Positions 2,581 to 23,436 of a stretch of 64,000 nucleotides of DNA are shown here, piece by piece. The stretch is from Candidatus Latescibacterota bacterium (GTDB lineage: Bacteria > Latescibacterota > UBA2968 > UBA8231). Location: positions 918,631 to 982,630 of the forward strand of contig CBDCNM010000001.1 in assembly GCA_965219385.1 (NCBI GenBank), read 5' to 3'. Numbering within the stretch: position 1 is the first letter of the stretch; each line of letters opens with the position of its first letter. Below the pieces are notes generated by a model. It did no database searches and was not told the origin of the DNA. It saw only the letters and a program-made list of their open reading frames with translations. Position numbers and translations under genes: made by a program.

Positions 2581-3999
2581 CTAGCAGGCCGTTGAAAAAC
2601 CAGGGTTTTTGCACAATGCACTGTGGGATAGGACGGCACCGATCTTGAACCTCCATTTGCAAGCAAAGGTCTCGAAAGCACCCAGACCTTTGCTAATGCG
2701 ATCCCAAGCCCGTTTGAGCCGGTTAGTAACGACGAAAAAGCCCGATATCAGGCCATGGAGACCCCTCGGAGTCCCCTTCCCGGTGATTTTGCGCATCACC
2801 AACCCCAGATTAAAAGCGCCGCCATGAATACACCGGCGTTTATAGATCTTGTCCTGACTGCGCAGGTGCGTGCGTCGCAGGCCCCCCGTTTCATAAGCGT
2901 GGGCGAAACTGCGTTCCGCGTACTCAGCGCGAAGCCGTTGCAGGGCGTGGCCACGGACCCCTCGTATGCGACGCCGATTGGCATACACGGCCGCCTTGGC
3001 CTGGGGATCATTCTTCCACTGGCGGCGCCCGCGACCGGGTTCGGAAAGGTAGCTGCGGATCTGAGCGCGCTTCAACGTCTTGGCGGTGTAATTGCTGTGA
3101 TAGCCCTTGTCCGTTACCACTTCGGTGAGCACGGGCGGCGGCGGCCGTCCTTTGTGAGCCGCCTCGGCGACCAGGCTCGCCTCCAGATTCATGGAGGCCT
3201 GCAGCAGACTCCAGGGCAGAGACGCCGTATCGCCCTCGTCAGCGCCGCACACCTGAATCGCTACCAGGGCCTGGGTGTCCAGATCGATCGTATGCTCCGC
3301 CTTGTGCGCCAAGTGGGTACGCCCGTCTTTCATCTTGGTAATGCGCGCCTCCGGGTCATGGGGGTGTTGCCAGTCCTGGTTGGAGCCTTTGTGCGCACGC
3401 TTCTGGTCGAGCTGGGCCAGATCCTGCCGCGTCGGCGTCTCGATGCCTTCGGCCTGGGCCAGCCCCTCCAGATAGGTGTGGTAGCTTTCCCCACTGTCGC
3501 GCCGCACGATGCGGCGCAGGGCGGCGTTGGCCTCCAGCGTGGTGGCGTCCACCGCCACTGTCTTCCCCTTGAGCAGGCCTTCCTGGGCCAGCACCTTCAG
3601 CACCCAGTTGAAGACCTCCTGATGCACCTCCAGCGGCAGGCGCTGACGAATGCGCGACCGGCTCGAATGGTCCGGTGTGGTCTCGGTCAAGGCGTAGCCC
3701 AGAAAGTGGCGCAAGGCCAGCGAATCGGCGACCCGCCCGTCCATGCCGCGCTCCGAGCCCAAGCCCTCGAAATAGCCGATCATGAGCATGCGGAAATAGA
3801 CCCCGGGGGCAATACTGGGTCGTCCCAAGGTCTCCGCATAATAGGGGGCGCAGCGCGCTTCCACGAAGGCATCAAATCCATGCGATGCCAGCAGCTTATT
3901 GAGTTGGGCATAAAACGGATGCCCCGGCGCCTCGGGCAGGTCATGGGTCTGTACCCACATCTCCTGCTGCTGACTTTCTCGACGCTTGCTCATCGACAT
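2581..3999 (-). CDS. IS1182-like DDE transposase
   Basis: GRPSIAP, PDHS, VDATTLEANA, DPEAR, DKGYH and ERSFAH motifs; GGAGG upstream; the stop codon is supplied by the CTAG target. Confidence 0.85.
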   Translation of the reverse strand: MSMSKRRESQQQEMWVQTHDLPEAPGHPFYAQLNKLLASHGFDAFVEARCAPYYAETLGRPSIAPGVYFRMLMIGYFEGLGSERGMDGRVADSLALRHFLGYALTETTPDHSSRSRIRQRLPLEVHQEVFNWVLKVLAQEGLLKGKTVAVDATTLEANAALRRIVRRDSGESYHTYLEGLAQAEGIETPTRQDLAQLDQKRAHKGSNQDWQHPHDPEARITKMKDGRTHLAHKAEHTIDLDTQALVAIQVCGADEGDTASLPWSLLQASMNLEASLVAEAAHKGRPPPPVLTEVVTDKGYHSNYTAKTLKRAQIRSYLSEPGRGRRQWKNDPQAKAAVYANRRRIRGVRGHALQRLRAEYAERSFAHAYETGGLRRTHLRSQDKIYKRRCIHGGAFNLGLVMRKITGKGTPRGLHGLISGFFVVTNRLKRAWDRISKGLGAFETFACKWRFKIGAVLSHSALCKNPGFSTAC

Positions 4000-4108
4000 A
4001 CAACAACCTCCTTCAGCTATTACTAATCTAGAATAGAAAGAATAGACTTGTATGCCAAGTCGCCTATTTTTGATATAGCAGAACTTTTCAGCCTTTTTCA
4101 ACGGCCTG
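2585..4108 (-). mobile_element. IS1182-like element nested in element A
   Basis: IRs CAGGCCGTTGAAAAA at both ends; CTAG duplicated at 2581-2584 and 4109-4112. Confidence 0.85.
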
Positions 4109-4391
4109 CTAGACGGTATCCCAAGGGGGAAAATCAAGCGGCAGCATCCGCCACGGAATACCCCCTTTGACGACCTATAAAATGGCATTGACCACCTCGC
4201 GTTTGGCATACTTGCCGGGGTTGCCCCGGGGATCAGGACGGTCGAAAAACCCCGCGATCAGGGCCCATTCTGGATCCGTCAAGTCACTTGGATACCCGCC
4301 CATACTAAAAGCCTCCCTGCGCAAAAAAGACAGCAAGCAATACATTATACATACAATACATACAGAGCTTTTTTAACTCAACAGCTTCTTA

Positions 4392-5840
4392 GCTCGACTT
4401 TATCCATTTATGTAGCGTACGAGACGGTGTGTATCAAGCGGTTGAGTAGGCTTCGAGGGATTTTTATCAGGTCGTGTTGGTTGGGCAGGTTGGAAAAAGC
4501 CTGCCAGAGCCGTTGTCGGACCCAGGCCACGGCATCGGAAAAGGTGGGTTTTCGTTTGCCATACCAGGCCGTGGCATGGCAGGGGGAGGCGCTTTTGGGG
4601 GCCAGCCGATTGGCGATGAGGGCGACCAGACTAAACAAGGCCAAGATGACCGGCGTGGTCCGGGCAATGGCCCGCTCATTCCATTGGCGTTGGGTTTCCA
4701 TGCCCAGATGGGCGCGGGCTTCCTCAAAGGTAGTTTCTACCGACCAGCGTTGGAGAAAATAGGTCAGCATTTGCCGAGGGGACAGACGCACATCGGTCGA
4801 GAGCAAGGCTTGGGGCGCGAAGCGGCCGGCCGGGTCTCGGATCAGCAGCCAGCGGAGGGGCACGGCGGGCAAGCCAGTGTGATACCACAGCGCCGTTTGG
4901 CTGTAGGTTTCCACTGTATAGGGGCCGGCGGCATACCACCGGTCCAGGGTGAGGGGGTGCCAAGGGGTAGTCGGATCGTCCAGGTGCTGCTGGAGGGTGG
5001 GCTGCCGGGCGCCTTTGCCGCGGGGGCGTCCCCGCGTGTGCGGCGTGCGGGTTGGTGGTGGGTCATACAGGGCCGCATCCAACCGCAAGCGGGTAATCAG
5101 CCCCACGTGGGGCCGAACCGCGTCGAGAAAGGCCAAGGCGGAGAAGGTGCTATCGGCGACCACGACCAGCCGGCGGGTGGGCAGCCAGCGCGCTACCAGC
5201 TTGAGCATAGTCTGCCCCCGTTGCAACAGGGTGAGGGGGGTGCGCTGGCGCTGAGTATAGTAGCGGGCCGACGGACACAGCACACTCATAAAGGGTAAGG
5301 CCCAACTTCGATCCGCCCAAGGGATAGGCGCTACCAGCATCAACGACAGCCAGCGCAAGCCGCTAGCCTTGACCAGGTGGGGCCCACTCGAGCGGACGGG
5401 ATCCCGGTAGATGCCTCGGGCCCCAATCTGGGCGCCCCGGCGCCGCTCGATGGTCTCATCCAGGCCCAGGACCAGGGGCCCGTGGGGGGCAAAGGCGGCC
5501 ACCAACGCCTGGAGGAGTAGCTTACTGCCGGCCAGGGGCGACCACACACAGCGGTTGAGGATCCGGTGGTAGGTTTGAAAGGTAGGCTGTTGGCTCAAGC
5601 CCAACACCTCCAACACGGCGCTGACCGTGCGTTTACCCGGGGCTAACAGCGCCCCGACCAACAGCGTCTGAGCCTGCGGCCAAACGCGGCTCGAAAAAAG
5701 GGGGGCAAAGGGCGACAAAATCGTTATTATATCTTTCGGCAGGGGGCTCATCGGTTTCTCCTGGGCTGTCGATGCTTGGATACCATCAACAGTACGGAGG
5801 ATACCGGCCTCCTGCCATGCGCGTTTGGATAAAATCGAGC
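4392..5840 (-). mobile_element. IS701-family element between IS5 elements A and B
   Basis: IRs GCTCGACTTTATCCA / TGGATAAAATCGAGC, flanked by TTA(G) on both sides. Confidence 0.82.
4408..5751 (-). CDS. IS701-like DDE transposase
   Basis: LDETIERRRG, VVADS, RLRLDAALY, RWSVETTFEEARAHLG. Confidence 0.85.
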   Translation of the reverse strand: MSPLPKDIITILSPFAPLFSSRVWPQAQTLLVGALLAPGKRTVSAVLEVLGLSQQPTFQTYHRILNRCVWSPLAGSKLLLQALVAAFAPHGPLVLGLDETIERRRGAQIGARGIYRDPVRSSGPHLVKASGLRWLSLMLVAPIPWADRSWALPFMSVLCPSARYYTQRQRTPLTLLQRGQTMLKLVARWLPTRRLVVVADSTFSALAFLDAVRPHVGLITRLRLDAALYDPPPTRTPHTRGRPRGKGARQPTLQQHLDDPTTPWHPLTLDRWYAAGPYTVETYSQTALWYHTGLPAVPLRWLLIRDPAGRFAPQALLSTDVRLSPRQMLTYFLQRWSVETTFEEARAHLGMETQRQWNERAIARTTPVILALFSLVALIANRLAPKSASPCHATAWYGKRKPTFSDAVAWVRQRLWQAFSNLPNQHDLIKIPRSLLNRLIHTVSYAT

Positions 5841-5843
5841 TTA

Positions 5844-6775
5844 GAGGCCGTCTGAAAACCATGTTTATTCTAAGCGAGTCGTTTGAGTAGCAAGTAAATC
5901 ATGGCGATCTGAATCAACGCTTCGCTGTGGCGGGTCAACACTTCATAATCTCGGGCATGCCGACGAAAGTTCATCAACCACGCAAAGGTTCGTTCGACCA
6001 CCCACCGTCGTTTGAGCGGTGTAAATCCATTTCCTTGTTTAGCGACGACTTCCAAGTCGATCTTATGCGTCTTTTTTAAGTCGGCTACCCACCCTTTGAG
6101 ATCGGCTCCCACATAGCCGCCATCGACCCACAGCTTACGTAGCCTAGGTACGCCGGGCGCAACATAGCGGGTCAACACCCACTTCAAGCCGTCCCGATCG
6201 CCCACATCGGCGGCGGTGACTTCCACCGGCCGGATCCATCCCAAGGTATCTACCACCAGGTGACGTTTGCGTCCTTTGATCTTTTTGCCGGCGTCATAAC
6301 CGATTGTTTCTCCTTGGGTTGCCGTCTTGATGGTCTGGCTATCGACCCCGCCGGCCGACGGGGTCGATAGCCGACCCTGCCGGCGGCGTTCCCGCTGGGT
6401 GAGTCGATCCAATATCGGCGGCCAGACCCCTTGTAGGCTCCAGCGGCGAAAGTAGTCATACACCGTTTTCCACGGCCCCAAACTCGCGGGTAACAAAGCC
6501 CAAGGACAGCCGGTCTTGGTCAGATACAAAAGACCATTGATGATCTGGCGTGGATCCCGCCGCGGGCGGCCCGGCCCGCCAGGAGGCCACGTCGAGGCGG
6601 GTAGTAACGGCTTGATTAGACGCCATTGCGCATCGGTTAGATCGGTGGCATATTCGTCGGCAGGCGTACTCATCATCGGGGCCTTTCTATTCAGATTTTG
6701 TGGTGAAACCTGAATATGGCCCGATGAGTACGCCGATTCAAATACGGGCTACATCAAGAGTTTTCAGACGGCCTC
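5844..6775 (-). mobile_element. IS5-family (IS1031-like) element B, apparently intact
   Basis: 16-bp IRs GAGGCCGTCTGAAAAC / GTTTTCAGACGGCCTC. Confidence 0.9.
5870..6676 (-). CDS. IS5-family transposase
   Basis: YATDLTDAQW, DSQTIK, KGRKRH, DGGY, RWVVERTFAW. Confidence 0.92.
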   Translation of the reverse strand: MMSTPADEYATDLTDAQWRLIKPLLPASTWPPGGPGRPRRDPRQIINGLLYLTKTGCPWALLPASLGPWKTVYDYFRRWSLQGVWPPILDRLTQRERRRQGRLSTPSAGGVDSQTIKTATQGETIGYDAGKKIKGRKRHLVVDTLGWIRPVEVTAADVGDRDGLKWVLTRYVAPGVPRLRKLWVDGGYVGADLKGWVADLKKTHKIDLEVVAKQGNGFTPLKRRWVVERTFAWLMNFRRHARDYEVLTRHSEALIQIAMIYLLLKRLA

Positions 6776-10077: not shown

Positions 10078-13000
10078 ATGAAACCAAAGATTTTAACACT
10101 CGTGGTTCTAGGCGCCTGGTGCTCCCTGGCCCATGGGGATACAGAGCGCATTCGCGCAACCATAGAATTCATGGCCTCTGTGGGGTCCAGGATCAGTGGG
10201 TATCCGGGCAGTGCCCGGGTTGCCGAGTTCGTGATGCGGGAATTTCAGGAGATCGGCTTGCAGGACCTCACCCGGGAGAGGTTTCAGGTAACGGTGCCCA
10301 TGGATCGCGGCGCCGAGTTGATCCTGGAAGAAACCGGAGAGCGTTTTGGGCTCAAAGGGCTGTGGCCCAACCACGTGCGCACCACGACCTTGCCACCCGA
10401 AGGAGTGAGAGCCTCCATGATTTACGGTGGATGGGGTCATTTTGCCGAATTCAATGGCAAAGAGATGGATGGCAGCGTGGTCCTCATGGAGTTCAACAGC
10501 AGCAACCACTGGCTGCACGCCGCCTCTTTGGGGGCCAGGGCCATTGTCTTCATCGCCCCTGAAGCTTCCAGCTGGAGGCAGGCCAACACCAAGTTCGTCG
10601 AGGTCCCCCTGGATGTGCCGCGTTTCTGGATAGACCGGGAGGCCGGGGAGTACCTCCGCCAGATTCTCTCCGAAAAGGAGAAGCAGGTGGGGTTAAAAAG
10701 CCGCATGACCTGGGAGCAGCACCCTGCCTGGAATATCTGGGGGGTTGTTCCCGGGCGGGATCCCCAGTTCAAAGGGGAGACCGTCATCGTGGAAGCTTAT
10801 TACGATGGCATCTCGGTGGTTCCGGCTCTGGCCCCCTCGGCCGAAACGGCCAGCAGTATAACGGCCCTGCTCGAACTGGCCCGGCATTTGCGAAACCACC
10901 CTCCGAAACGCACCATCGTACTGGTGGCTACGGGGGCCCATTTCCTGGCCCGGAGGGGAATTGTCGACTTTTTGGATCGGCACGCCCGCACCCATGAGGA
11001 ATACGAAAAACTCATGGAAAAGCCGCTCTACCCCAAACTTTTCATCAGCCTGGATTTGTCCAGCCAGACCGACCAGTTGGGGATATGGAACAACACCTAC
11101 AGCTATGATCTGAAGCGCTTTTTCGTGCCGTTCGGACGCAGGTTTACCGCCTACGCCCAGGAGATAGGCCCTTTGTTGGGCCGGGAGGCCCAAAAGTGCC
11201 TGGTCAATGGCATCAGCCCGATCAAGGGACTGGACTGGTCCACTTATGTGCCCGGTGGGGTGAGCGTAAACAGCCAGATTGCCCTGAAGGCAGGACTGGT
11301 TTCCCTGGCTTTTGTAACCGTAAACGATGCCCGCTTGGGGGTGGACACCCCGCTGGATCTACCCGAACAGGTCAAATATGATAATCTGGAGCGGCAGATC
11401 GCCTTCCTCAACGGTATTTTTTCCAGGGCCTTTCGCGACCCCGAATTGTTCGCCGACCTGGAAGATTTCGAACCGGTATTGAAGGACGAACTGCGCTCTT
11501 TCATCGTGAACGTGCGGGCTTTTCCGCGCCGCAGCCAGGTTCCGGACCGGGTGGTGCCCGGGGCCATCGTCGCCCTGGGGGCGGGAGCCAACCGCGAGGT
11601 AGGGGTAGGGATCAAACCGCACAAAGGAGTAAGGGGAAGCCATTATTACCTGGCCGATGAAAAGGCCGGTGTACAGATTCCGGGACTACCTCTTGGAGGA
11701 GTTCCGGTAACGGCCTATGTGCTCGTACCGGAAACCGGGGAGATCATCTATGCACCGGATATGAGTGAGCGGGCCCAGAAACACCATGGGAAGAAATTGG
11801 TCCAGGCCATCCGCTTCAAAGGCGAGCACAAAACCCTGGTGGTTTTTCCTTGCAGCTCGAGGCCGTTTTACAGCCTGATCGATCCAAGGGCCCTCAGCTG
11901 GATATCGGAGATCAAGGTCTTCGACAGCAATGGCGTGGCCCCCAAGCAGTTCGGCCTGGCCCTGGGAGCCGGGGTCCTCGAACCGGTAGCTGTAGTTTTT
12001 GCCGCTGCGGACGACAGCCTGATGTTTTTGATGGGCTCGAGCATGCTCCTGACCAACAGCACGAGAGATCCCCGGGGCACCGGGTACGTGGTGGGGCGCG
12101 ACAAGCTGGAGCGGACCGGTTTCCTGGCCGTTCAGGACATGTGGCGTCTCAACGATGAGCGGCTGAAGACCATGAAGATCCATTCCATTGAAAATCCACG
12201 TCTTTCGCGCTTGCACCAATACAGCAAAGAACTCATCGACCGGGCCGCTGCCGCCGAGCAGAACAAGGAATGGGACAAATTTATCGCTTATGTGCGGGCG
12301 GCGATGGGGGTGACGGCGCGGGCTTACCCCGATGTTATGGCGACCCTCAACGACGTCATTCAAGGCATGGTTTTTTTCCTGGCCCTGCTCATCCCCGCGG
12401 CGTTTTTCGGTGAGCGCCTGGTCTTTGGCTCATCGGATATCCGCTGGCAATTGTCGGGCTTCGGGTTCTTGCTGTTGATCGTGTGGATCGTAATCTCTCA
12501 GGTTCATCCAGCCTTTGCCATTGCCCATCCCCTGGTGATATTGCTGGCCTTTGCCATCATGGCCATGGCGGTTTTTGTGTTTGCCATGATTACCAGCCGC
12601 TTCAATCGGCACATGAGGGAGTATCAGGCGCGGGCCGCTCACATCCACGAGGTCGATATAAGCCGGGTGAGCGCTTCCTATGCGGCCTTCATGCTGGGAA
12701 TTTCCAATATGCGGCGCCGCAAATTGCGCACCGGTCTCACCATGGCCACCCTTACCTTGTTGACCTTCACCGTATTATCCTTCACCTCGTTCAGACAGCA
12801 AATCAGCTTCATGGCCTTCCCCGCGGCCCACGAGGGGCGCTACGAAGGTACCTTGATCCGCCACAGGGGATGGAGCCAGTTGAGCCTCCCCACCTATAGC
12901 TTTGTTCTTTCCCACTTCGGTAGAGAGGGCATCGTCAGTCCGCGGAACTGGTACATAACCATGGACAAGGAGCAGAAAAAGTACATCGAAATCCGCTATG

Positions 13001-14475
13001 GAAATAGCTCGGTAAAGGCCACGGGGCTGCTGGGGCTGGCTCCTCAGGAAGCCCAGATCACCGGTATTGATAAGGCCCTGAAAGCCGGCACCTTTTTCGA
13101 GGATATCGGTGAGTCCACCTGCCTGATTTCGGATAAAATGGCCCAGAGGCTGGGTATTGAAGCCCGGGATTTAGGTCGGGCAGAGGTCCAGGTTTTCGGT
13201 AAGGATCTGGTGGTGCGGGGCATAGTGGACTCCGAGGCATTTGCCGAGATCCGCGATCTGGACAACGAAACCTTGACTCCGGCCGATTTCCAGTTGTCCA
13301 GCATGCAGGCCATGGGGCCGAGTACCAGGATCAAAATGACCGTAGAAGAAGAAAGTAAGACTCCAGAGATCCGGCCTTTTGTCCACCTGGCGCCACAAAA
13401 TGTGCTGATTTTGCCCTACGAGACCCTGTGGGCCGCGGGAGGAGATCTCAGATCCGTTGCCGTGAAGTTCCACGAGGGAGCCGGCGGCCAGGCCCTGCTG
13501 GAGGATTTTCTGTTGCGCCTGGCAATCACCCTTTTTGCCGGTTTGCGGGATCCGGGCGATCCCGAGATCCACGTTTCCTCCTATACCTCGCTGGGTTTGA
13601 CCGCGGTGGAAGGCCTGGGAGCTCTGGTGATCCCCATGTTCATCGCGGCCTTGATTGTCTTGAATACCATGCTGGGCGCAGTCTACGAACGCTTTCGGGA
13701 GATCGCCGTGTACTCCTCCGTGGGCCTGGCGCCCATGCACATTGCCTTGTTGTTCATAGCCGAGGCCTGCGTGTACGCGGTGGTCGGGGTTACGCTGGGT
13801 TATATCATAGGGCAGGGTCTCGGCAAGATCCTGATCGAGCTGAACTTGGTTCAGGGCATGGATTTGAACTATTCTTCCATGTCGGCCATCACCTCGGCGC
13901 TCCTGGTCATGGGGGTGGTTTTGCTGTCCACCGTCTATCCTGCGCGCCTGGCTGCCCGCGCCTCGGTACCGGACCTGGTGCGGCGCTGGGTTCCCCCGCC
14001 GCCGGATGGGGATCGCTGGGAATTTGATTTTCCCTTTATGGTAAGCGAAGGGGAGGTGCTGGGTTTGGCCGGATTCCTGGGCAATTATTTCAAGGCTTAC
14101 AGCGAGGAGTCCATTGGGGAATTCTATGCGGAAAAAGTCCGCATCGTTCAGACCGAAGATACCGACCGGAAAGAGTACGCCGTGCAAATGCTGCTCTGGC
14201 TGGCTCCCTTCGATATGGGCGTTAGTCAGTACATGCAGCTGGAGTTTGTGCCAACCGGTAAATCCACGATCTATACCATTGAAGTGTTTATTCAGCGGAT
14301 CAGCGGGCAGGACACCTCCTGGCAGCGGGTCAACCAGCGTTTTATGAACGGTCTGCGCAAGGAGTTCCTGATCTGGCATACCTTCGGCGAAGAGGCCCGT
14401 GAACACCATCGTCAAGCAGCCCTGCAGATGCTGGCCGAAAGCGCCCGGGAGCGTCTGGAGGAGAGCACTTCTTGA
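10078..14475 (+). CDS. Large membrane protein: PA + degenerate M28-like ectodomain fused to FtsX/MacB-like permease domains
   Basis: Signal peptide; EAYYDG...APSAETASSITALLELAR; a TM block; NMRRRKLRTGLT (MacB/FtsX-type TM1 entry); periplasmic domain; VYERFREIAVYSSVG FtsX-type motif. Confidence 0.75.
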   Translation: MKPKILTLVVLGAWCSLAHGDTERIRATIEFMASVGSRISGYPGSARVAEFVMREFQEIGLQDLTRERFQVTVPMDRGAELILEETGERFGLKGLWPNHVRTTTLPPEGVRASMIYGGWGHFAEFNGKEMDGSVVLMEFNSSNHWLHAASLGARAIVFIAPEASSWRQANTKFVEVPLDVPRFWIDREAGEYLRQILSEKEKQVGLKSRMTWEQHPAWNIWGVVPGRDPQFKGETVIVEAYYDGISVVPALAPSAETASSITALLELARHLRNHPPKRTIVLVATGAHFLARRGIVDFLDRHARTHEEYEKLMEKPLYPKLFISLDLSSQTDQLGIWNNTYSYDLKRFFVPFGRRFTAYAQEIGPLLGREAQKCLVNGISPIKGLDWSTYVPGGVSVNSQIALKAGLVSLAFVTVNDARLGVDTPLDLPEQVKYDNLERQIAFLNGIFSRAFRDPELFADLEDFEPVLKDELRSFIVNVRAFPRRSQVPDRVVPGAIVALGAGANREVGVGIKPHKGVRGSHYYLADEKAGVQIPGLPLGGVPVTAYVLVPETGEIIYAPDMSERAQKHHGKKLVQAIRFKGEHKTLVVFPCSSRPFYSLIDPRALSWISEIKVFDSNGVAPKQFGLALGAGVLEPVAVVFAAADDSLMFLMGSSMLLTNSTRDPRGTGYVVGRDKLERTGFLAVQDMWRLNDERLKTMKIHSIENPRLSRLHQYSKELIDRAAAAEQNKEWDKFIAYVRAAMGVTARAYPDVMATLNDVIQGMVFFLALLIPAAFFGERLVFGSSDIRWQLSGFGFLLLIVWIVISQVHPAFAIAHPLVILLAFAIMAMAVFVFAMITSRFNRHMREYQARAAHIHEVDISRVSASYAAFMLGISNMRRRKLRTGLTMATLTLLTFTVLSFTSFRQQISFMAFPAAHEGRYEGTLIRHRGWSQLSLPTYSFVLSHFGREGIVSPRNWYITMDKEQKKYIEIRYGNSSVKATGLLGLAPQEAQITGIDKALKAGTFFEDIGESTCLISDKMAQRLGIEARDLGRAEVQVFGKDLVVRGIVDSEAFAEIRDLDNETLTPADFQLSSMQAMGPSTRIKMTVEEESKTPEIRPFVHLAPQNVLILPYETLWAAGGDLRSVAVKFHEGAGGQALLEDFLLRLAITLFAGLRDPGDPEIHVSSYTSLGLTAVEGLGALVIPMFIAALIVLNTMLGAVYERFREIAVYSSVGLAPMHIALLFIAEACVYAVVGVTLGYIIGQGLGKILIELNLVQGMDLNYSSMSAITSALLVMGVVLLSTVYPARLAARASVPDLVRRWVPPPPDGDRWEFDFPFMVSEGEVLGLAGFLGNYFKAYSEESIGEFYAEKVRIVQTEDTDRKEYAVQMLLWLAPFDMGVSQYMQLEFVPTGKSTIYTIEVFIQRISGQDTSWQRVNQRFMNGLRKEFLIWHTFGEEAREHHRQAALQMLAESARERLEESTS

Positions 14476-14507
14476 AATAAGGATTATAGCGTGCAAGGAG
14501 CTTCTTA

Positions 14508-17207
14508 GTGGCTCAGCAGCTTACGGACAAAGAAAGAGCCAAACTGGAAAGGGAATGGGAGGAGGTCAAGGACTATCGCGATCTCCTCGAGGCCCCGAAC
14601 CGCTTTGACGAAGGTTTTACCATGCGGACCGTCATCGGGGTTCTGTTCATTTCCCTGATCATGACCCCGGGGGAGATGTACCTGGGATTGGTCACGGGCG
14701 GGGGCATCGGGGCGGCCGCCCAGTGGGTGACGGTCATCCTCTTCCTGGAGGTGGCGAAACGTTCGTTCACTTCCTTGAAGCGGCAGGAGATCTACCTGCT
14801 GGTCTACGTGGCCGGGGCCCTGGTCGCCCGGGAAGAAGGCGCCTTCCTCGATTTTCTCTGGCGCCAGTACTTTGTGCGCTCGCCCGAAGCCGAACAATTC
14901 GGGGTTGCCGAGATCCTGCCCTTCTGGTGGGCCCCGCACCCGGATTCCCCGGCCCTGGCCCAGCGCTCCTTCATCCACCCCGACTGGGCCTGGCCCATCG
15001 GATTGATGGTCCTGGGCACCATCATCGGGCGGATTTCCTGGTTCACCTCGGGGTATTTGCTCTTCCGCCTCACCTCGGATCGGGAGCAGCTGCCCTTTCC
15101 AACCGCACCCATGTCGGCCCTGGGCTCCATGGCCCTGGCCGAAGAAAGCGGAGACGAACGCGAGACCTGGAAATGGCCCGTTTTCAGTATTGGTTCCGTG
15201 ATTGGAGGCGTCTTTGGCGTCCTCTACGTGGGCATCCCTACGGTGACCAGTCTAATGGGCAGCAGGATAGAGCTGATCCCCATACCTTTTGCCGATTTCA
15301 CCCCCTATTTCGGCAACATCCTCAAGGCGACCCCACTGGGGATTACCCTGCATTTAGGGCCCATCTTCGGTGGTTTGCTGATGCCTTTCTGGTCGGTCAT
15401 AGGCTCCTTTTCAGGAGTCATGGTCCACACCTTTGTCAGCCCTATCCTGCACGCCTATGGACTCATGCCGCGCTGGGTGGTGGGCATGGATACCATCAAT
15501 ACCCAGATCGCTACCGGAATCGACTTCTGGCGGGCTTTTTCGATCGGCATCACCCTGGCGGTAACCCTGATCAGTTTTTACCAGTTATGGTCTACCCTGG
15601 GACGGCAGCGGACCCAGATTCAGGAGTACTTCGGCGGGGGAGATAAGGCGCAATACCCCACGACCTGCCAGCACGAGGGCTGCAACCAGTCCTCCGAAGT
15701 GCGGGGTTATTGCATCAAGCACCTGGGGCGAGGGGACTTCAATATATGGGTCTGCCTGGCCTTGTTCAGCGTGTCGGCCATATATCCGATCCTCCTGGCC
15801 AAGACCCTTTTCCCCACCCTGGTAGGGGTGGGCTTGCTGGTGACCTTTGCCCTGATCGCCTTTGTGTACGCCCCGATCATGTCCTTTGTGAGTGCCCGTC
15901 TGGACGGCCTGATCGGCCGGGAGGTGTCCATACCCTATATCAACGAGGCCATCATTTTCCTGACCGGGTACCGGGGGGTGGATGTCTGGTTCGTTCCCTT
16001 TCCGAACCGCAACTACGGAGGGCATGCAGAAGGATTCAGGGTGGTGGAACTGGTCGGGATGCGGTTTACCAGTCTGCTCAAGGCCGAAGTCTTCATGCTG
16101 CCCATCGTACTCGGGGTCAGCATGATGTACTGGACCTTCCTGTGGCGTCTGGCACCGATTCCCTCCGAGAGTTATCCCTACGCCCAGTTGATGTGGCCCC
16201 TGCGAGCCTTCGACCAGGCTTTATTCCTCTCCAGCACCATGTACAACAAGACCTGGCGAGCCGGTGAGGAGGTGGAGAACGAGATCGTAGCCCACGGGCA
16301 GGTGGTGTGGAGTCCAAGCAATCTACAGGACCGCAACTGGTGGTACTGGCGGGTCCGCGCTACCCGGGAAATCCACATCCCCGACGAGCTCAAGAGGGCG
16401 TACGGCCCATGGTCCGAGACCGGATATTTCTACACGGATTTCAAGGCTAAGGGGCCACCGGACAAGAGGCCGGATCTCGAGGCGCTGACAACCCATGTTG
16501 CAGCACTCGACCCCAGTGGTGTTTCGGGAGGCGGACTCAGTGGTAGGTTCGAACTGCCCGCTACGCCCCGCCTGTTATGGCCCGACAAAGGCGCTGTGCT
16601 GTCAGGGGAGGGGGCAACCAATCCCAATTTCCGCGCGGCTCTGGATCTGGCTCTGGAAGACTCGGTGGAGTTCTATATCGAAGTGGACCGCCTGCCCACC
16701 TTTGACGGCACCTTTCTGCAGCGTTCCTCGGACGTTCCCATGATGTACGAAGTGCTCTGGAACGATGTCAAGTACACCGGGGATATGAAAGACAACGATG
16801 GGGATGGGCTGGAAGACGAGGAGGTGAAAAACGGCGAAGACGACGACGGCGACGGAAAGATTGACGAGGATATCCACCATCCCCTGGGCGGGAAAAAGTG
16901 GAAAATCATCCTCATCGGCACCTCTTTCGGACTGGTAGCCTATTTCACCCTGGCGGCCTTTGGCATGCCCATCTTCCTTATCTGGGGTTATGTCCAGAGC
17001 GTCAACGGGATTCCGCACGCCCTGCTTCCCCAGATCTTCGGGGCCCTGCTGGCGCGCTACTATTTTTGGAAGAAATACGGCAAGCAACAGTGGCGCCGGT
17101 ATGCCATGGTGCTGTCCGTGGGTTTCGGGGTGGGCATGTCCTTGATCGGAATGTTCTGCGCGGCCCTGGCCATGATCAGCAAGGCGGTTTCTTCGTTGAC
17201 GTATTGA
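14508..17207 (+). CDS. OPT/YSL-like polytopic membrane protein with inserted soluble domains
   Basis: Many TM segments; FTMRTVIGV, MYLGLVTG, EQLPFPTA and APIPS motifs of the OPT-like type; GTG start 32 bp after the upstream gene. Confidence 0.65.
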   Translation: MAQQLTDKERAKLEREWEEVKDYRDLLEAPNRFDEGFTMRTVIGVLFISLIMTPGEMYLGLVTGGGIGAAAQWVTVILFLEVAKRSFTSLKRQEIYLLVYVAGALVAREEGAFLDFLWRQYFVRSPEAEQFGVAEILPFWWAPHPDSPALAQRSFIHPDWAWPIGLMVLGTIIGRISWFTSGYLLFRLTSDREQLPFPTAPMSALGSMALAEESGDERETWKWPVFSIGSVIGGVFGVLYVGIPTVTSLMGSRIELIPIPFADFTPYFGNILKATPLGITLHLGPIFGGLLMPFWSVIGSFSGVMVHTFVSPILHAYGLMPRWVVGMDTINTQIATGIDFWRAFSIGITLAVTLISFYQLWSTLGRQRTQIQEYFGGGDKAQYPTTCQHEGCNQSSEVRGYCIKHLGRGDFNIWVCLALFSVSAIYPILLAKTLFPTLVGVGLLVTFALIAFVYAPIMSFVSARLDGLIGREVSIPYINEAIIFLTGYRGVDVWFVPFPNRNYGGHAEGFRVVELVGMRFTSLLKAEVFMLPIVLGVSMMYWTFLWRLAPIPSESYPYAQLMWPLRAFDQALFLSSTMYNKTWRAGEEVENEIVAHGQVVWSPSNLQDRNWWYWRVRATREIHIPDELKRAYGPWSETGYFYTDFKAKGPPDKRPDLEALTTHVAALDPSGVSGGGLSGRFELPATPRLLWPDKGAVLSGEGATNPNFRAALDLALEDSVEFYIEVDRLPTFDGTFLQRSSDVPMMYEVLWNDVKYTGDMKDNDGDGLEDEEVKNGEDDDGDGKIDEDIHHPLGGKKWKIILIGTSFGLVAYFTLAAFGMPIFLIWGYVQSVNGIPHALLPQIFGALLARYYFWKKYGKQQWRRYAMVLSVGFGVGMSLIGMFCAALAMISKAVSSLTY

Positions 17208-18090: not shown

Positions 18091-18813
18091 ATGGCAGGTA
18101 TTTTCCAGCGCTTATTCAAAACAGGGGAGGCCGAGGCCCACGCCCTGATCGACAAATTTGAAGATCCCATTAAAACGAGTGAGCAGGCCATCCGCGACCT
18201 GAGAAAGGATTTGCAGGAAAGCGTCAAGGCCCTGGCCGAGGTAAAGGCCCTGGCCATTCGCAAGACCAAAGAAGGCGAGGAGAAAAAGAGCCTGGCCGCC
18301 GATTGCGAGCGCAAAGCCATGCGGTTGCTTCAAGAAGCTCAATCCGGGAATATGGAGGAGGCCGAGGCCGAACGCCTTGCCCGGGACGCCCTGGTGCGCA
18401 AGGAAGGGGCCGCCACCCAGGCCCTAGAGGCCACCCAGCAAGCCCAGGCCCAGCAGGCCACGGTGGCCAAACTGCAGAACAACGTCAATGAACTCAAGTC
18501 CAAGATTTCTTCCTTCGAGAACGATCTGGTCACCCTTAAAGCGCGCACCAAAACCGCCAATGCCACCCGCAAGATCAACCAGCATCTGGCGAACGTGGAT
18601 TCAAAGGGCACCGTGGCTTTGCTCGAGCGCATGAAAGAGAAGGCCTCCGAACAGGAGGCCCTGGCCCAGGCCTATGGGGATATGGCCGACGCTTCCAGGT
18701 CCGTGGACGATGAAATCGACAAGGCCCTGGCCGGCACCACGGCCCCCAAGGCGGAGGATTCCCTGGCCGCTTTAAAGGCCAAGATGGGTTTGCAAAAGGA
18801 GAATCCGCAATAG
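18091..18813 (+). CDS. pspA: PspA/IM30 (bacterial ESCRT-III-like) family protein
   Basis: MAGIFQRL amphipathic N-terminus, EDP motif, long coiled coil, LKAR, ERMKEK, LAALKAKMG. Confidence 0.9.
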   Translation: MAGIFQRLFKTGEAEAHALIDKFEDPIKTSEQAIRDLRKDLQESVKALAEVKALAIRKTKEGEEKKSLAADCERKAMRLLQEAQSGNMEEAEAERLARDALVRKEGAATQALEATQQAQAQQATVAKLQNNVNELKSKISSFENDLVTLKARTKTANATRKINQHLANVDSKGTVALLERMKEKASEQEALAQAYGDMADASRSVDDEIDKALAGTTAPKAEDSLAALKAKMGLQKENPQ

Positions 18814-18835
18814 AAGGGGCGTCGAAGGACCTGGC

Positions 18836-20518
18836 ATGTCTTCCCTGACCCGCCGTCAATTCCTCCGTTTGATCGCAGCCGGCAGCAGTATCCCCTGTCT
18901 GCCGGCTTGTTTTAAGCAGACCGATGTTCCGCGGCATTTTGACATCCCGGGCCAGATCGTCAATCCATCCCCCATTCCGGGCCACCTAGTGCGCGCCCGG
19001 TACCAGGCGCGGGATTTTCCCGCCCCCTCCGGCCCTCTCTACGACGCCGTGGTGGTGGGGGGGGGGATTTCCGGCTTGGCCGCTGCATGGAAGCTGCGGA
19101 AGACCGGTGTGGACAAGATCCTCCTTCTGGAACTGGGAGAGCAAGTGGGAGGAACCAGCATCGCCGGATTTGCCAAGGGCACGGCGTTTCCATGGGGGGC
19201 TCACTACATCAATATCCCACCTGCCGAAGCGGATTGCATCCACGAGATCCTGACGGATATCGGGGTCATCCAGGGGTACGACCAGGGCGGGCGGCCCCGG
19301 ATTAAAGACGAGCACCTCCTGCGCTGGCCGCACGAGCGGCTGTATGTCGACCGAGCCTGGGTAGAAGACCTGGATCCCTTTGTCAATGCTGCTGAAGACA
19401 ATGTGGAAGTCCTGCGCCAGTTTGAGGATGATATGCTGCGCTGGACCCTCTACCGGGACCGCGAGGGTAGGAGGGCTTTTGCCATGCCCTTGCTCTACAG
19501 CAGCCGGGATGAAGCGGTTCGAGCCCTGGACGAGATTACCATGGAGGCGTATGTGCGCTCCAGGGGCTGGTATTCAGAGGAACTGGATTGGCTGCTTGAC
19601 TACGCCTGTCGCGACGACTACGGCAGTGGCTTTGACCAGGTGTCGGCCTGGGCCGGCATTCACTACTTTTCCTGCCGTTTTTACGATCAGAGGGTCGGCG
19701 ACGAATACCCGGCGGATACCCTGACCTGGCCAGAAGGCAATGCCTATCTGGTCAGAGGTTTGTTGGACCATCTCGGCCCGGAACACCACCGGACCCGACA
19801 TCTGGTCCTCTACCTGGCTTGCGCTGAGGATGGGGTGCACCTTGGTTTTACCGATCTGGCCAGTGGAGTATTCCATGCCCTCAGGAGCCGGACCGTTATT
19901 TACGCCGGCAAGCTGCACGCCGCCCCTCATGTTATTGCGGGCCTGCCGGCATCCCAGGCCCGGGCCATGTCTTCTCTAATCTACAGCCCCTGGCTGGTAG
20001 CTGCCATCCAGTTGGAACGCCGTCTCGAGAATGCTCCAGTCCCCCCGGCCTGGGACAATATCATGCTCAACAGCCCTTCGACCGGGTACGTGGTCGCGGA
20101 TCACCAAAATCCCCCGGGCGATCCGCAAGCCCCGGGGGTACTGGTCTATTATCTGCCCTTTGTTCAGGATGTGGGCAGATCCCGACACGAGCTGCTCGAA
20201 CGGGACCATGGATTCTGGGTCGACCGCATCATGAATGACCTGAGCCGGGCGCATCCGGGCCTGGAGGACCAGGTCGAACGGATTGACCTTTATCGCTGGG
20301 GACACGCTATGGTCCGGCCTTCTCCCGGGGTCCTGTGGGGCGGGCAAAGCCGGTGGCGGCGCACTCCTTTTGGGTCTATTTTCTTCGCTGGTTGCGATGT
20401 GACCGGTCTACCCTTGTTCGAGGAAGCCTGCTTTGCCGGAATTCACGCCGCTGAGCAGGTCCTGGAGTACCTGGGGGTGGGGTTCGAGACTTCATTGAAA
20501 GGGTTGCGGAATGTCTGA
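18836..20518 (+). CDS. FAD-dependent amine oxidase-like protein, probably Tat-exported
   Basis: TRRQFL signal followed by Cys; VVGGGISG; WGAHY; YACRDDYG; RWGHAM. Confidence 0.8.
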   Translation: MSSLTRRQFLRLIAAGSSIPCLPACFKQTDVPRHFDIPGQIVNPSPIPGHLVRARYQARDFPAPSGPLYDAVVVGGGISGLAAAWKLRKTGVDKILLLELGEQVGGTSIAGFAKGTAFPWGAHYINIPPAEADCIHEILTDIGVIQGYDQGGRPRIKDEHLLRWPHERLYVDRAWVEDLDPFVNAAEDNVEVLRQFEDDMLRWTLYRDREGRRAFAMPLLYSSRDEAVRALDEITMEAYVRSRGWYSEELDWLLDYACRDDYGSGFDQVSAWAGIHYFSCRFYDQRVGDEYPADTLTWPEGNAYLVRGLLDHLGPEHHRTRHLVLYLACAEDGVHLGFTDLASGVFHALRSRTVIYAGKLHAAPHVIAGLPASQARAMSSLIYSPWLVAAIQLERRLENAPVPPAWDNIMLNSPSTGYVVADHQNPPGDPQAPGVLVYYLPFVQDVGRSRHELLERDHGFWVDRIMNDLSRAHPGLEDQVERIDLYRWGHAMVRPSPGVLWGGQSRWRRTPFGSIFFAGCDVTGLPLFEEACFAGIHAAEQVLEYLGVGFETSLKGLRNV

Positions 20519-22049
20519 GGAAACAGCACCGTCGGACATTTCCCGCCTGGGGTTGTTCTTGTTGCTGGGGTCCATTTTGGTGGCGGCGGCCTGTGCCATC
20601 GTCTACGAGTTGTTGATCGGGAGTATTTCCTCCTACTTCATGGGCAACAGCGTGGAACAGTTCTCCCTGACCATTGGTTTTTTCCTCTTCGCCATGGGGG
20701 TGGGTTCCTGGATTTCGCGTCTGGTCCAGCAGAATCTTCTTGCGCGCTTCATAGCCCTGGAGGTTTGGCTGGGACTGGTAGGAGGAAGCGCAGTGCCTCT
20801 TCTCTACCTGGCCTATACCTGGTCGGACCACTATCGCTACTGGATGCTGGTGCTGATCGTGGTGATCGGTTTGTTGATCGGTCTGGAAGTGCCGCTCCTG
20901 ACCCGGATTCTGCGGGGCTACGGTCCATTGCGCACCACCCTGTCCAACGTGTTGTCGCTGGATTATTTGGGGGCCCTGGTCGCGGCGTTGATTTTTCCCT
21001 ATTTGTTGATGCCCGTGCTGGGCGGGCTGCACACTTCTCTGCTTACCGGGTTGGTCAATCTCCTGGTGGGGGTAGGGGTTCTGTTCAGTTTCAGGCGGCA
21101 GTTGCCCCGACGTTCCTTTGCCTACCTTTGCTTTCAGGGCGTCCTGGTAGGGGGGATCCTGCTGGGGTCGCTCAGCCTGGCCAATCCTCTACTTGAGCGC
21201 TGGGAGAGCACCCTTTACGAAGATCGCATCATTCACAGCGAACAGTCGCCCTACCAGAAGATTGTCCTGACCCGCTGGCGCGACGAGCTGAGATTGTTTC
21301 TAAATGGACATTTGCAGTTTGCCTCGGTGGACCAGCACCGCTACCACGAATCCCTGGTGCATCCGGCCATGAGCCTGGCCCCAGACCGGGAAAGGGTGTT
21401 GATTATCGGGGGGGGAGACGGCCTGACCGCGGCCGAAATTCTCAAATACCCTGATGTTGTACGGATTGATTTGGTGGATATCGACCGGGCCGTGACCAAT
21501 CTGGCCAGGCGCAATCTCCACCTGACTCGTTTGAATAAAAATTCCCTGAACCACCCCAAAGTGCATATCTTTAACCAGGACGGTTTCATTTTTTTGCAGC
21601 GCGAGCAGTTGGCCTATGGGGTGATTATCCTGGATCTGCCGGATCCGCGCGAGGAAGCCCTGGCCAAACTCTACTCTGTGTCGTCTTATGAATTGTGCAA
21701 GCGGCATCTGGCGCCGGGCGGCTTGCTGGTCACCCAGGCCTCCAGTCCCTATTATGCCAGGGCGGCTTTCTGGAGCGTGGCGGCGACTCTGGAAAAAGCC
21801 GGTTTCCAGCTTACCTCCTATCACGCCTATGTGCCTTCTTTTGGAGAATGGGGCTTCCATCTGGCCAGCAGGGGGATACTGGACCTGAGCGCAGTTGAGT
21901 TTGCAGTGCCGCGGCGTTTCCTCGAGGCCAGTCTTTTTCGCAGTATGCTGCGCTTCGATGCCGACATGGCCCGGCTTGAGGTGGAGCCCAATCGACTTGA
22001 TAAACCGCTTCTGGCGCGTTATTATCGTCAGGGATGGAGTCAATGGTAG
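20511..22049 (+). CDS. speE: Membrane-bound polyamine aminopropyltransferase (spermidine synthase-like)
   Basis: N-terminal TM domain plus QSPYQKI, YHESLVHP, IIGGGDG, LDLPDP, VPSFGEWGF. Confidence 0.9.
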   Translation: MSEETAPSDISRLGLFLLLGSILVAAACAIVYELLIGSISSYFMGNSVEQFSLTIGFFLFAMGVGSWISRLVQQNLLARFIALEVWLGLVGGSAVPLLYLAYTWSDHYRYWMLVLIVVIGLLIGLEVPLLTRILRGYGPLRTTLSNVLSLDYLGALVAALIFPYLLMPVLGGLHTSLLTGLVNLLVGVGVLFSFRRQLPRRSFAYLCFQGVLVGGILLGSLSLANPLLERWESTLYEDRIIHSEQSPYQKIVLTRWRDELRLFLNGHLQFASVDQHRYHESLVHPAMSLAPDRERVLIIGGGDGLTAAEILKYPDVVRIDLVDIDRAVTNLARRNLHLTRLNKNSLNHPKVHIFNQDGFIFLQREQLAYGVIILDLPDPREEALAKLYSVSSYELCKRHLAPGGLLVTQASSPYYARAAFWSVAATLEKAGFQLTSYHAYVPSFGEWGFHLASRGILDLSAVEFAVPRRFLEASLFRSMLRFDADMARLEVEPNRLDKPLLARYYRQGWSQW

Positions 22050-22073
22050 CATGATCGCCAGGGGAGGACGAGC

Positions 22074-22613
22074 ATGATAAAGAAATGGTTCGGCAAAGAC
22101 GAGGAGAACGGCGAAGTCTATCGGGAATATACCCTGGATACCATGAGGCAAGGGTACCTTGTGGACTACGATCTGAAAACCTGGGAAGTCACCGGATTCA
22201 ATACCTATGACTACGAGGGCTATACAACCCGGGAATGGGAGCTGCGCTGCGGTGGGGAACTGCGATTTTTGGAACGAGCCGAAGAGGATGGACAGGTCGA
22301 ATGGACCCTGACCCGGAGAATCCAGATCAACCAGATAGAAGAAAAGGTAATCGATATTATCCTGGAGCATGACGACCCGCCGGAAGATATCCACTTCGAG
22401 GGCAGATCCTATGCGGCCGTGGAAAGCAGTGCAGGCCTGATGCGCCGAGGGGGTGAGGGAGAGGGCCGCGAGTTCGTCAGCTGGAGTTACGAAGCAGGAG
22501 AGGATCGGGTGCTCTTTATCGTCCAGTGGGGCGAGCGAGACTTTGTCGCCTACGAAGGCGCCTATGCGGAAGACTACCAGTTCACCGACATTCTGCCGGG
22601 TAACCAGGAGTAA
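22074..22613 (+). CDS. DUF4178-like acidic protein
   Basis: W-x-E-W type motif, PPEDIHFEGRSY; operon context. Confidence 0.65.
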   Translation: MIKKWFGKDEENGEVYREYTLDTMRQGYLVDYDLKTWEVTGFNTYDYEGYTTREWELRCGGELRFLERAEEDGQVEWTLTRRIQINQIEEKVIDIILEHDDPPEDIHFEGRSYAAVESSAGLMRRGGEGEGREFVSWSYEAGEDRVLFIVQWGERDFVAYEGAYAEDYQFTDILPGNQE

Positions 22614-22641
22614 AAGGTCGGCGAGAGAGGAGAATTTCATT

Positions 22642-23409
22642 GTGAACCTGACATCCTGTCTAAGAAGGCTTCTAAGAAGGCGGCAGAGTCGAAGGATAAG
22701 CCTGGGTATCCTCATGGGTGTGCTGGCGTTGGTGGGATGCGGGGGGGAGAGGGATCCTGTCGAGAAACTCCGGAGGGATTTGAATCGCTACCCCGAATTC
22801 TCTTTGATGGTAGACGACTTGCGGATTGAGGAAGGCTTTTTCCCCGACTATTTTCTGCGTTTCAAGGTGCTCACCGCTTCCGGTCAGCGCACGGCCGGCC
22901 AGGACACGGTGATTTACCAGGAGCGGATCACGCCGTGGGAAGAAGTGAGCGAGGAGGTCTTTGCCCGCTACGAAAACTACGTGGGGATGGTGGTGGCTTC
23001 CAAAAGCATGGACGGTCGCCAGACCGGTCCGCGTCAGGCCCATCCGGCCGGTTACCAGTACGTGGGGAACCCCCACTATGGGGTCTGGGGCGGAGGTGGT
23101 TTCTGGCAGTTCTACGGCCAGTACGCCTTGATGCGAGACTTGATGGGCGGATGGCGCGTGAGTCGAGGCGATTACGGGGATTACCGGCGCTACACCCAAC
23201 GGGGACAGCCCTATTATGGGCCGGAAAAAAACGGTCGCCAGACCTTTGGATCGCGGGGCACGGTGACGGAAAAGACCCGGCCCAATTTTTACCAGCGCAA
23301 CCGGCAGCGCTTGCAGTCCGGTCGCCAGGCGTTTGCGGGCAAGGCCCAGACTCGGATGGGACGAACCAGTTCGAGCTGGGGGAGAGGTTCCACTCGCTTT
23401 GGAAAGTAA
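22642..23409 (+). CDS. Lipoprotein with Gly/Arg/Tyr-rich C-terminus
   Basis: GAGGAG RBS + GTG start; lipobox LVGC; PAGYQYVGNPHYGVW...FWQFYGQY. Confidence 0.7.
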   Translation: MNLTSCLRRLLRRRQSRRISLGILMGVLALVGCGGERDPVEKLRRDLNRYPEFSLMVDDLRIEEGFFPDYFLRFKVLTASGQRTAGQDTVIYQERITPWEEVSEEVFARYENYVGMVVASKSMDGRQTGPRQAHPAGYQYVGNPHYGVWGGGGFWQFYGQYALMRDLMGGWRVSRGDYGDYRRYTQRGQPYYGPEKNGRQTFGSRGTVTEKTRPNFYQRNRQRLQSGRQAFAGKAQTRMGRTSSSWGRGSTRFGK

Positions 23410-23436
23410 GAAGGCTTCTAAGAGGGAGAAACAATC

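Follow-up and report, generated by a model that had tools for sequence, protein, structure and literature searches.

ATP-binding cassette (ABC) systems of type VII such as MacB, LolCDE, FtsEX-EnvC, YtrEF and YbbAP-TesA are built on an FtsX domain of four helices, the first and second of which (transmembrane helices TM1 and TM2) are separated by a large periplasmic domain. In FtsEX-EnvC and YbbAP-TesA a periplasmic hydrolase-like domain is associated with this machinery, as is reported for YbbAP-TesA (PMC12646458). The present study concerns two neighboring genes, G1 and G2, in a 64-kb stretch of DNA from Candidatus Latescibacterota bacterium (C1:918631-982630, hereafter the window), whose products bring together the M28 peptidase fold, the type VII ABC permease fold and the OPT fold, a combination that is found in no known system. 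The pair is one copy of a conserved inner-membrane module that occurs throughout the phylum. As to its role, we lean towards a complex that takes up substrates, probably peptides, with the help of a receptor, and whose type VII ABC-like scaffold is probably served by an FtsE-like ATPase encoded in trans, a reading to which we give somewhat less than an even chance.

The likeness of G1 to the type VII systems lies in the FtsX domain with its large periplasmic domain, in the hydrolase-like part, and in an FtsE-like ATPase that is encoded beside the gene set in the sister family f3. It departs from them in that permease and hydrolase-like head form a single polypeptide, in which the head has no canonical catalytic site, that three extra transmembrane helices and a new C-terminal cytoplasmic domain are present, and that most G1 loci have no ATPase in cis. 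Moreover, the constant partners of G1 are OPT-fold permeases, none of which is described for type VII systems in the literature that we searched. G2 can be compared with the OPT/Yellow-Stripe-like transporters (PF03169; HvYS1, 7wsr/7wst), to which it is linked by its fold and by a full-length profile match to OPT-positive relatives; unlike them, it has no Pfam OPT match of its own, carries an outer insert of ~215 residues and a Cys/His knuckle-like loop, and is genetically tied to a MacB/FtsX-fold protein. The head of G1 shares the M28 fold with an inserted PA domain with aminopeptidases such as YwaD/BSAP of B. subtilis (6hc6) and the enzymes of Aneurinibacillus (2ek8) and Aeromonas (1rtq), but in the alignments its first His is replaced by Tyr, the bridging Asp by Glu, the general-base Glu by His and the next Glu by Phe or His. 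In having no canonical metal ligands within a membrane protein, it is like the transferrin receptor, nicalin and nicastrin; unlike in decayed M28 sites, its substitutes are conserved across the family, and unlike in these enzymes and their inactive relatives, the head is fused to a transporter-type module. Finally, DUF6785/DUF6784 proteins, which are remote members of the OPT superfamily, are encoded in the same clusters as G1 and are sometimes fused to it, whereas G2 has no Pfam match to them and reaches only 45% in a direct profile comparison.

We found no description of this gene set: literature searches on FtsX/M28/Latescibacteria, OPT, type VII ABC and nicalin/nicastrin returned no published account of a G1-G2-DUF6785/84 family, and no literature on DUF6785 or DUF6784 was found. 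The module gives DUF6785/DUF6784 their first testable functional context, and bacterial OPT relatives gain a defined partner.

Domains of the two proteins

G1 occupies positions 10078-14475 of the window as an open reading frame (ORF) of 1465 aa, and G2 follows at 14508-17207 as an ORF of 899 aa with a GTG start, both on the + strand, on which all features of the pair given below also lie. The gap between them is 32 bp, and the coordinates given in the original prediction, which was made from the sequence of the window, proved exact. At E<=0.001, database searches with ~8000 scored candidates for each gene returned 1016 relatives for G1 and 662 for G2, most of which come from metagenome-assembled genomes titled Latescibacterota or Gemmatimonadota. 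With so many relatives, both G1 and G2 are real genes.

With regard to the N-terminal part of G1, residues 1-20 (10078-10137) form a putative signal peptide, which was called by eye from a basic N-terminus, a hydrophobic core and AHG followed by D, and for which the model has a predicted local distance difference test score (pLDDT) of ~50. The following PA and M28-fold ectodomain (residues ~21-470, 10138-11487) emerged from profile, model and fold searches alike. A family profile of 43 sequences matched PA-domain aminopeptidases in the PDB, namely 2ek8 (E 1.2e-11) and 6hc6 (E 1e-9), and gave weak matches to nicalin (E 0.011 and 0.052 over ~40 residues) and to the transferrin receptor (~0.06). 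The AlphaFold model of residues 1-760 (pLDDT 90.9, predicted TM-score (pTM) 0.90) retrieved 6hc6 first in Foldseek (2.9e-25), then 2ek8, the transferrin receptor (5e-22), a Pseudomonas aminopeptidase and glutamate carboxypeptidase II. In VIA-align the same model was superposed on the Aeromonas aminopeptidase 1rtq with a Z of 27.7 (rmsd 2.6, 258 residues aligned) and on the GPI-transamidase chain 7w72_A with a Z of 18.1. The Pfam M28 model has no match in G1 itself and weak matches in relatives. In the predicted structure, the head is thus an M28 alpha/beta fold with an inserted PA domain. Nicastrin and nicalin, to which the original prediction likened this protein, do not figure among the top fold matches listed, a list that need not hold every match; in sequence as in fold, active bacterial PA-M28 aminopeptidases and the transferrin receptor come nearest, and the two names are better kept as analogies. 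Behind the ectodomain, going by its secondary structure, the model has a beta-rich domain at residues 472-660, followed by three long helices (680-759) that lead into the first transmembrane helix (both parts at 11491-12354). This part gave no separate fold match, in structure searches with the whole model that were dominated by the M28 part.

The metals of active M28 enzymes such as that of Aeromonas are bound by five residues (His, Asp, Glu, Asp, His), and a Glu serves as general base. The three motifs of G1 that had been read as degenerate forms of these (YYD, APSAETAS and TGAH) are literally present, as AYYDG at 240-244, APSAETAS at 252-259 and TGAH at 285-288, and profile alignments place them on the H-x-D, D and E-E motifs: the first His of H-x-D is aligned with Y241 and its Asp with D243, the bridging Asp with E256, the general-base Glu with H288 and the ligand Glu with F289. 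To complete the site, we assume from the order of the M28 motifs, and not from an alignment, that D326 is the retained Asp and that A418 replaces the last His. We examined these positions in 72 G1 proteins, comprising that of the window, the two paralogues in its genome and 69 from related loci, with a minimum length of 1300 aa by which 7 shorter proteins were dropped. The counts were Y in 69, D in 70, E in 70, H in 70, F in 68, D in 70, and A or G in 69. In 26 distant proteins from families f3 and f4 all 26 have the Y, the D, the E and the H, and the remaining positions are H in 24 (position 289), D in 25 and A in 24. The canonical set of M28 ligands and general base is accordingly incomplete in G1, and the canonical two-zinc site is absent from the family, as far as alignments tell. 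Thus the structural comparison called for by the original prediction upheld the M28 fold (Foldseek, VIA-align), with no intact canonical site in the alignments. Since the substitute residues are nearly invariant, the pocket seems to have been remodelled, for a ligand or perhaps for a single metal, rather than to have decayed.

Between the head and the permease, hydropathy peaks at residues 760-778, 797-815 and 820-838 mark the three extra transmembrane helices (residues 760-838, 12355-12591), a region with many nearly invariant columns. The MacB/FtsX-type module then comprises TM1, a periplasmic core domain and TM2-TM4 (residues ~860-1296, 12655-13965). The only Pfam match in G1 is FtsX at residues 1183-1296 (13624-13965; E 4.1e-13, 49.9 bits against a cut-off of 25.5). 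Hydropathy places helices at 1177-1286, NCBIfam gave partial MacB, FtsX and LolC matches on this stretch, and the C-terminal part of the family profile matched YtrF (1.1e-8), MacB (3.6e-8), LolC and LolF in the PDB. Between TM1 and TM2, the Pfam MacB_PCD model passes in relatives, including P0092, and in a paralogue from the same genome (L002), and is not passed by G1 itself. By these matches, G1 has the architecture of type VII permeases, in which TM1 and a periplasmic domain come before the FtsX domain (TM2-TM4). Of the parts proposed for G1 in the original prediction, the PA/M28-like ectodomain, the transmembrane blocks and the MacB/FtsX-type end were borne out by the profile, the model, hydropathy and the Pfam FtsX match, and the putative signal peptide agrees with the sequence. 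The family alignment shows hardly any variation in the cytoplasmic TM2-TM3 loop or in the stretch that follows TM4; in solved MacB and LolC structures these parts contact the ATPase. After a proline-rich linker, G1 ends in a conserved cytoplasmic domain of ~170 residues (1297-1465, 13966-14472) with 17 invariant columns among 44 family proteins, which had no match in Pfam, NCBIfam or the PDB profile search and no usable hit in the ESM Atlas.

G2 is a divergent permease of the OPT/Yellow-Stripe fold with an inserted outer domain. Pfam OPT does not match G2 at E<=1, and Pfam gives nothing credible elsewhere in it; a PDB sequence search with the family profile returned nothing, and the ESM Atlas returned an unnamed Latescibacterota cluster only (score 0.77). 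The assignment as OPT-like is made because of the relatives, a profile comparison and the fold. An exhaustive phmmer search with G2 collected 920 representatives, and Pfam OPT matches 9 of the 17 distant relatives scanned at E<=0.01, seven of them above the cut-off of 25.8 bits. The profile of the G2 family aligned with that of the OPT-positive relatives over nearly the whole length (28-899 against 12-631; probability 100%, E 2e-115). The model of G2 (pLDDT 81.4, pTM 0.79) matched barley Yellow Stripe 1 (HvYS1; 7wst and 7wsr, E 1e-7, probability 1.00) and nothing else in the PDB at E<=0.001, with a target TM-score of 0.55 over ~565 columns. These lines of evidence sustain the OPT-like partner of the original prediction. 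In terms of classification, G2 is best described as a relative within the OPT superfamily and not as a member of PF03169 (TC 2.A.67) at the level of the Pfam model.

Many G2 relatives have ~630 aa and match G2 at ~30-580 and 800-899, the middle insert being absent. The insert itself (residues ~580-795, 16245-16892), which was delimited by these length classes and by the secondary structure of the model, has ~215 residues and is modelled as beta strands with an acidic D/G-rich loop. In longer relatives of ~1070 aa (P0142, P0197), Pfam PDZ matches lie at residues ~750-900, in the same region as the insert, and P0245 has a Reg_prop repeat there (677-699). Toward the end of the insert of G2, residues ~750-795 (~16750-16890) are very acidic and rich in Asp and Gly, with repeated D-x-D-G-D-G-like spacing at low model confidence, and this stretch may resemble calcium-binding loops. 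Separately, residues 387-405 (15666-15722) hold a Cys-x4-Cys ... Cys-x2-His stretch in a low-confidence loop. Pfam matches it weakly as Zf_WRKY19-like (E 1.6e-4, short of the cut-off), as it does in three relatives, and it may be a small zinc knuckle.

The wider gene set and its distribution

The pair was regarded in the original prediction as an orphan two-gene system, and this view does not hold. We fetched 76 related loci and mapped G1, G2, DUF6785/84 and ABC ATPases in them by tblastn; in five, G1 is cut by the contig end, and the layouts were counted over the other 71. The commonest order is DUF>G1>G2 (35 loci), followed by DUF>G1 (14) and by G1 fused to the DUF protein (10); DUF>G1 with the downstream side unknown was seen in three, G1>G2>DUF and DUF>G1>G2>DUF in two each, and G1>DUF in one. 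G1>G2 without a DUF6785/84 gene, the layout of the window, was found in two loci, and two more have G1>G2 with the upstream side unknown. An OPT-superfamily gene is present in the cluster at 71 of 71 loci, with G2 in 43, DUF6785/84 in 67 and fusions in 10. The fused relatives of G1 have ~2100 aa, with a DUF6785+DUF6784 protein at the C-terminus, and further fusions were met among the database relatives and in the genome survey. Therefore, the window, where no DUF6785/84 gene adjoins the pair, shows a minority layout of a wider module.

The DUF6785/84 family (PF20581, PF20580) is itself a remote OPT relative, as its profile matches that of the OPT-positive G2 relatives (probability 97%, E 9e-11). 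Compared directly, G2 and DUF6785/84 gave 44.7% in hhalign and nothing significant in BLASTP, so that their relation runs solely through the OPT-positive relatives of G2. We also considered G2 as a member of DUF6785/84, which was ruled out by the lack of a PF20581 or PF20580 match and of a BLASTP match.

Three paralogous modules are present in the genome of the window, each with a G2-like gene directly downstream of G1 or one gene away. The second has the order G1>G2-like (C2:3539576-3532421) and the third G1>DUF>G2-like (C2:2545800-2537381). In the second (locus L001, C2:3526000-3545000), the G2-like gene is followed at 5049-6414 (-) by an unassigned ORF of 336 aa and a gene for a PqqD-like protein, and a SurA_N-like gene lies upstream of one of the G1 paralogues in this genome. 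DUF6785/84 has expanded further, to 24 paralogues in the genome (tblastn >200 bits), including an array of five in 12 kb (C2:3027466-3039313, locus L089). Tandem DUF>G1>DUF>G1 arrangements occur in two loci of family f3 (L099 and L100, from genomes G061 and G042).

Of 168 genomes of the phylum, 155 have G1 and 154 have G2. Neither gene was found in any of the 13 genomes of family f10 (64-97% complete), and presence of the two differs in a single genome, which is 57% complete. The two genes, whose co-occurrence the original prediction proposed to survey, thus share a phyletic pattern; the 168 genomes are related and are not independent samples, and no statistical claim is attached to these numbers. 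Most genomes have three to five G1 matches. The phylum is widespread and uncultured, and a module that 155 of its 168 sampled genomes share, mostly as several copies, is probably a major way in which these bacteria deal with their surroundings.

The ATPase and the competing readings

In the uptake complex that we favor, G1 and G2, together with the DUF6785/84 protein where there is one, would assemble into one complex, although their physical association is inferred. The peptidase-like head of G1 and the variable outer domain of G2 would capture a periplasmic substrate, most likely peptides or protein ends, and the OPT-fold permease or permeases would carry it into the cell. The MacB/FtsX module would couple the head and the permease through conformational change, probably driven by a separately encoded FtsE-like ATPase. 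The OPT superfamily consists of proton-coupled importers, and nutrient systems are usually multi-copy. We prefer uptake to a housekeeping function because the module is multi-copy and because the insert region of G2 holds different domains among relatives. If an ATPase serves the module, this would be a new job for mechanotransmission ABC systems, namely feeding a secondary importer.

FtsX/MacB-type permeases normally need an ATPase, and the original prediction stressed that none lies nearby. Indeed, the window contains no ABC_tran match, the nearest ones being at C1:881266 and C1:1117866. Of the 29 FtsX matches in the same genome, 25 have an ABC ATPase at no more than 11 kb and one has it at 16.5 kb; for the three G1 paralogues the distance is 37-58 kb. 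The absence from the window nevertheless cannot be read as an ATPase-free system, since an ATPase accompanies the gene set elsewhere and one of the same clade is present in this genome. In f3, the ATPase lies upstream on the same strand at 10 of 10 sampled DUF>G1>G2 loci, at a distance of ~0.7 kb in nine and of 5.5 kb in L097. The sample in f3 and f4 comprised 23 loci, of which the 13 without G2 have no ATPase; another f4 locus carries the ATPase 6 kb upstream of its DUF>G1>G2 set. Beside the f3 ATPase, ORFs of 352, 129 and 107 aa were considered as conserved partners and rejected, being of low complexity and resembling shadows of other frames; an opposite-strand ORF of 285 aa may be a real gene there.

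The survey for a trans-encoded ATPase, another suggestion of the original prediction, yielded an orphan candidate at C2:3976343-3977131 (locus L094:5343-6131, +). It has 262 aa, its best NCBIfam matches are LolD, MacB, DevA, YbbA and FtsE, all below the cut-offs, and no FtsX gene lies within 41.9 kb of it. Family f1 has orthologues of it in ~69 of the genomes listed, with identities of 80-88%. In a tree, the orphan ATPase (f1), FtsE and the operon-type ATPase (f3, f4, f6, f9) form one clade with a support of 99/98, within which FtsE and the operon-type ATPase are weakly joined (89/75). Constraining the orphan and operon-type ATPases together cost 1.77 log-likelihood units and was not rejected (p-AU 0.22), which is compatible with their being orthologous. 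FtsE adjoins a small FtsX gene in every lineage checked, and in one f8 genome (G008, C2:333911-344227) G1 and ftsX-ftsE share a strand, G1 being 4.6 kb upstream. ATPases near three other loci (L025, L040 and L077) were rejected as cognate because they fall outside the type VII clade in the tree. Five genomes of f10, which have no G1, gave no ATPase match above 52% identity; this agrees with a joint absence, although f10 may simply be the lineage at the greatest distance. A complex prediction of residues 860-1465 of G1 with the orphan ATPase scored 0.15 and 0.22 against a mark of 0.32 and weighs neither way. Taken together, ATPase linkage of the module is lineage-specific: there is a candidate in the genome of the window, an ATPase in cis in f3, and no dedicated one seen in f8, f13 and f14.

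Several observations weigh against the uptake complex with an ATPase in trans. An ABC ATPase lies within ~10 kb at only 3 of the 76 loci nearest to the window, where it belongs outside the type VII clade, three f4 copies of the ATPase stand alone, and the tree itself does not put the orphan with the operon-type clade. The f8, f13 and f14 genomes with G1 showed a single ATPase of the clade, which is taken for FtsE because it adjoins a small FtsX gene. Moreover, the C-terminal domain of G1 is attached where an ATPase would dock. As for the substrate, the neighbors of stand-alone DUF6785/84 paralogues are mixed and do not point to peptides in particular: they include SurA-like rotamases (3 loci among the 15 regions examined), secreted proteins with type IX sorting domains, PhyH dioxygenases, TIM-barrel/enolase-type enzymes and S9 peptidases. 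The near invariance of the replaced active-site residues means that the head may bind a metal or may even be catalytic, and not be a passive receptor. Lastly, the direction of transport is inferred by analogy with the OPT superfamily alone.

In a rival reading, the module would work with no ATPase at all, the MacB/FtsX fold having been rewired so that it is driven or gated by the proton-coupled OPT partner or partners, or having become a pure scaffold, with the new C-terminal domain of G1 in place of the nucleotide-binding domain. That neither the window nor the surroundings of the two other G1 paralogues contain an ABC ATPase, that 73 of the 76 nearest loci have none within ~10 kb, that f8, f13 and f14 keep G1 with no dedicated ATPase seen, that G1 is repeatedly fused to an OPT-superfamily permease, and that a conserved domain of 170 residues is tethered directly after TM4 are all in line with this idea. 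It is difficult to reconcile with the FtsE-like ATPase kept by the full gene set at all ten sampled f3 loci, with the orphan of the same clade that has no permease of its own, and with the cytoplasmic loops of the FtsX module, which are still nearly invariant; to our knowledge, moreover, an ATPase-free FtsX-fold system has never been shown experimentally. On this balance we hold it to be rather unlikely. The specific form in which the FtsX fold is coupled through the C-terminal domain to proton-driven OPT permeases, so that the proton gradient moves the head or the head gates the permease, is doubtful to a slightly greater degree. If it were true, energy would be coupled to this fold in a new way, and the module would stand for a new class of secondary transporters that depend on a receptor; and if no ATPase serves the module in whatever form, the MacB fold would here have an energy source that nobody has described.

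Another possibility, which we judge improbable, is a device for envelope remodelling or quality control like FtsEX-EnvC or YbbAP-TesA, in which FtsX would move or activate a head acting on cell-wall peptides, lipoproteins or misfolded periplasmic proteins, and the OPT-fold proteins would recycle the products or be structural. The sister relation of the associated ATPase clade to FtsE, the vicinity of G1 and ftsX-ftsE in G008, the SurA-like rotamases by DUF6785/84 genes together with the SurA_N-like gene upstream of one paralogue, and the PDZ domains in G2 relatives agree with such a role. Housekeeping machines are usually single-copy, whereas here we have several paralogous modules per genome and up to 24 copies of DUF6785/84; the canonical catalytic residues of the head are also missing, and no cell-wall or division genes lie close to the pair within the window. 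Control of periplasmic hydrolases by known type VII systems, as reported for YbbAP-TesA (PMC12646458), is a further point in its favor. Much less probable still is the role in membrane-protein biogenesis or intramembrane processing that was raised in the original prediction, with a dead M28 head acting as in nicalin or nicastrin. The likeness consists in an M28 fold with no canonical ligands, as in nicalin, nicastrin, the transferrin receptor and a GPI-transamidase subunit, in the weak nicalin profile matches (E 0.011, 0.052) and in the Z of 18.1 with 7w72_A. However, the head comes closest, in sequence and in fold, to active bacterial aminopeptidases and the transferrin receptor, no presenilin-, TMEM147-, YidC- or Sec-like partner was seen in the window or at the other paralogous loci of the genome, and the partners that were found have transporter folds; nothing was found in support of this role as such. 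We thus retain the uptake complex with a trans-encoded FtsE-like ATPase, for which the orphan at C2:3976343-3977131 is the candidate here, as our preferred reading.

Surroundings of the pair in the window

Upstream of G1 the window encodes a short-chain dehydrogenase, a TIM-barrel protein, an MFS transporter and three transposases. The transposase genes are consecutive (2581-6676, -; DUF772-type, DDE_5, and IS4/5 with DUF4096) and end ~3.4 kb upstream of the pair. Because of these transposases, and because the usual upstream DUF6785/84 gene is absent here, the locus may have been rearranged relative to its kin. Downstream, at 18091-24285 (+), are genes for PspA/IM30, a flavin amine oxidase, a membrane spermidine-synthase-like protein, DUF4178, an unassigned ORF and DUF350. 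The make-up of this cluster suggests a set of genes for membrane stress or polyamines; a link to the G1-G2 pair was not seen.

A promoter scan gave weak consensus matches only, with 6 promoter-like sites against 2.5 expected, and a terminator scan between G1 and G2 gave nothing convincing. In metatranscriptomes, four runs of one study hold mismatch-free contigs inside both G1 and G2; these contigs cover parts of the two genes, and the uncovered parts are uninformative. A contig at 14228-14547 reaches across the G1 stop and the G2 start, though RNA libraries can carry DNA and a contig across two genes does not prove a single transcript. These contigs give a weak hint that G1 and G2 are expressed.

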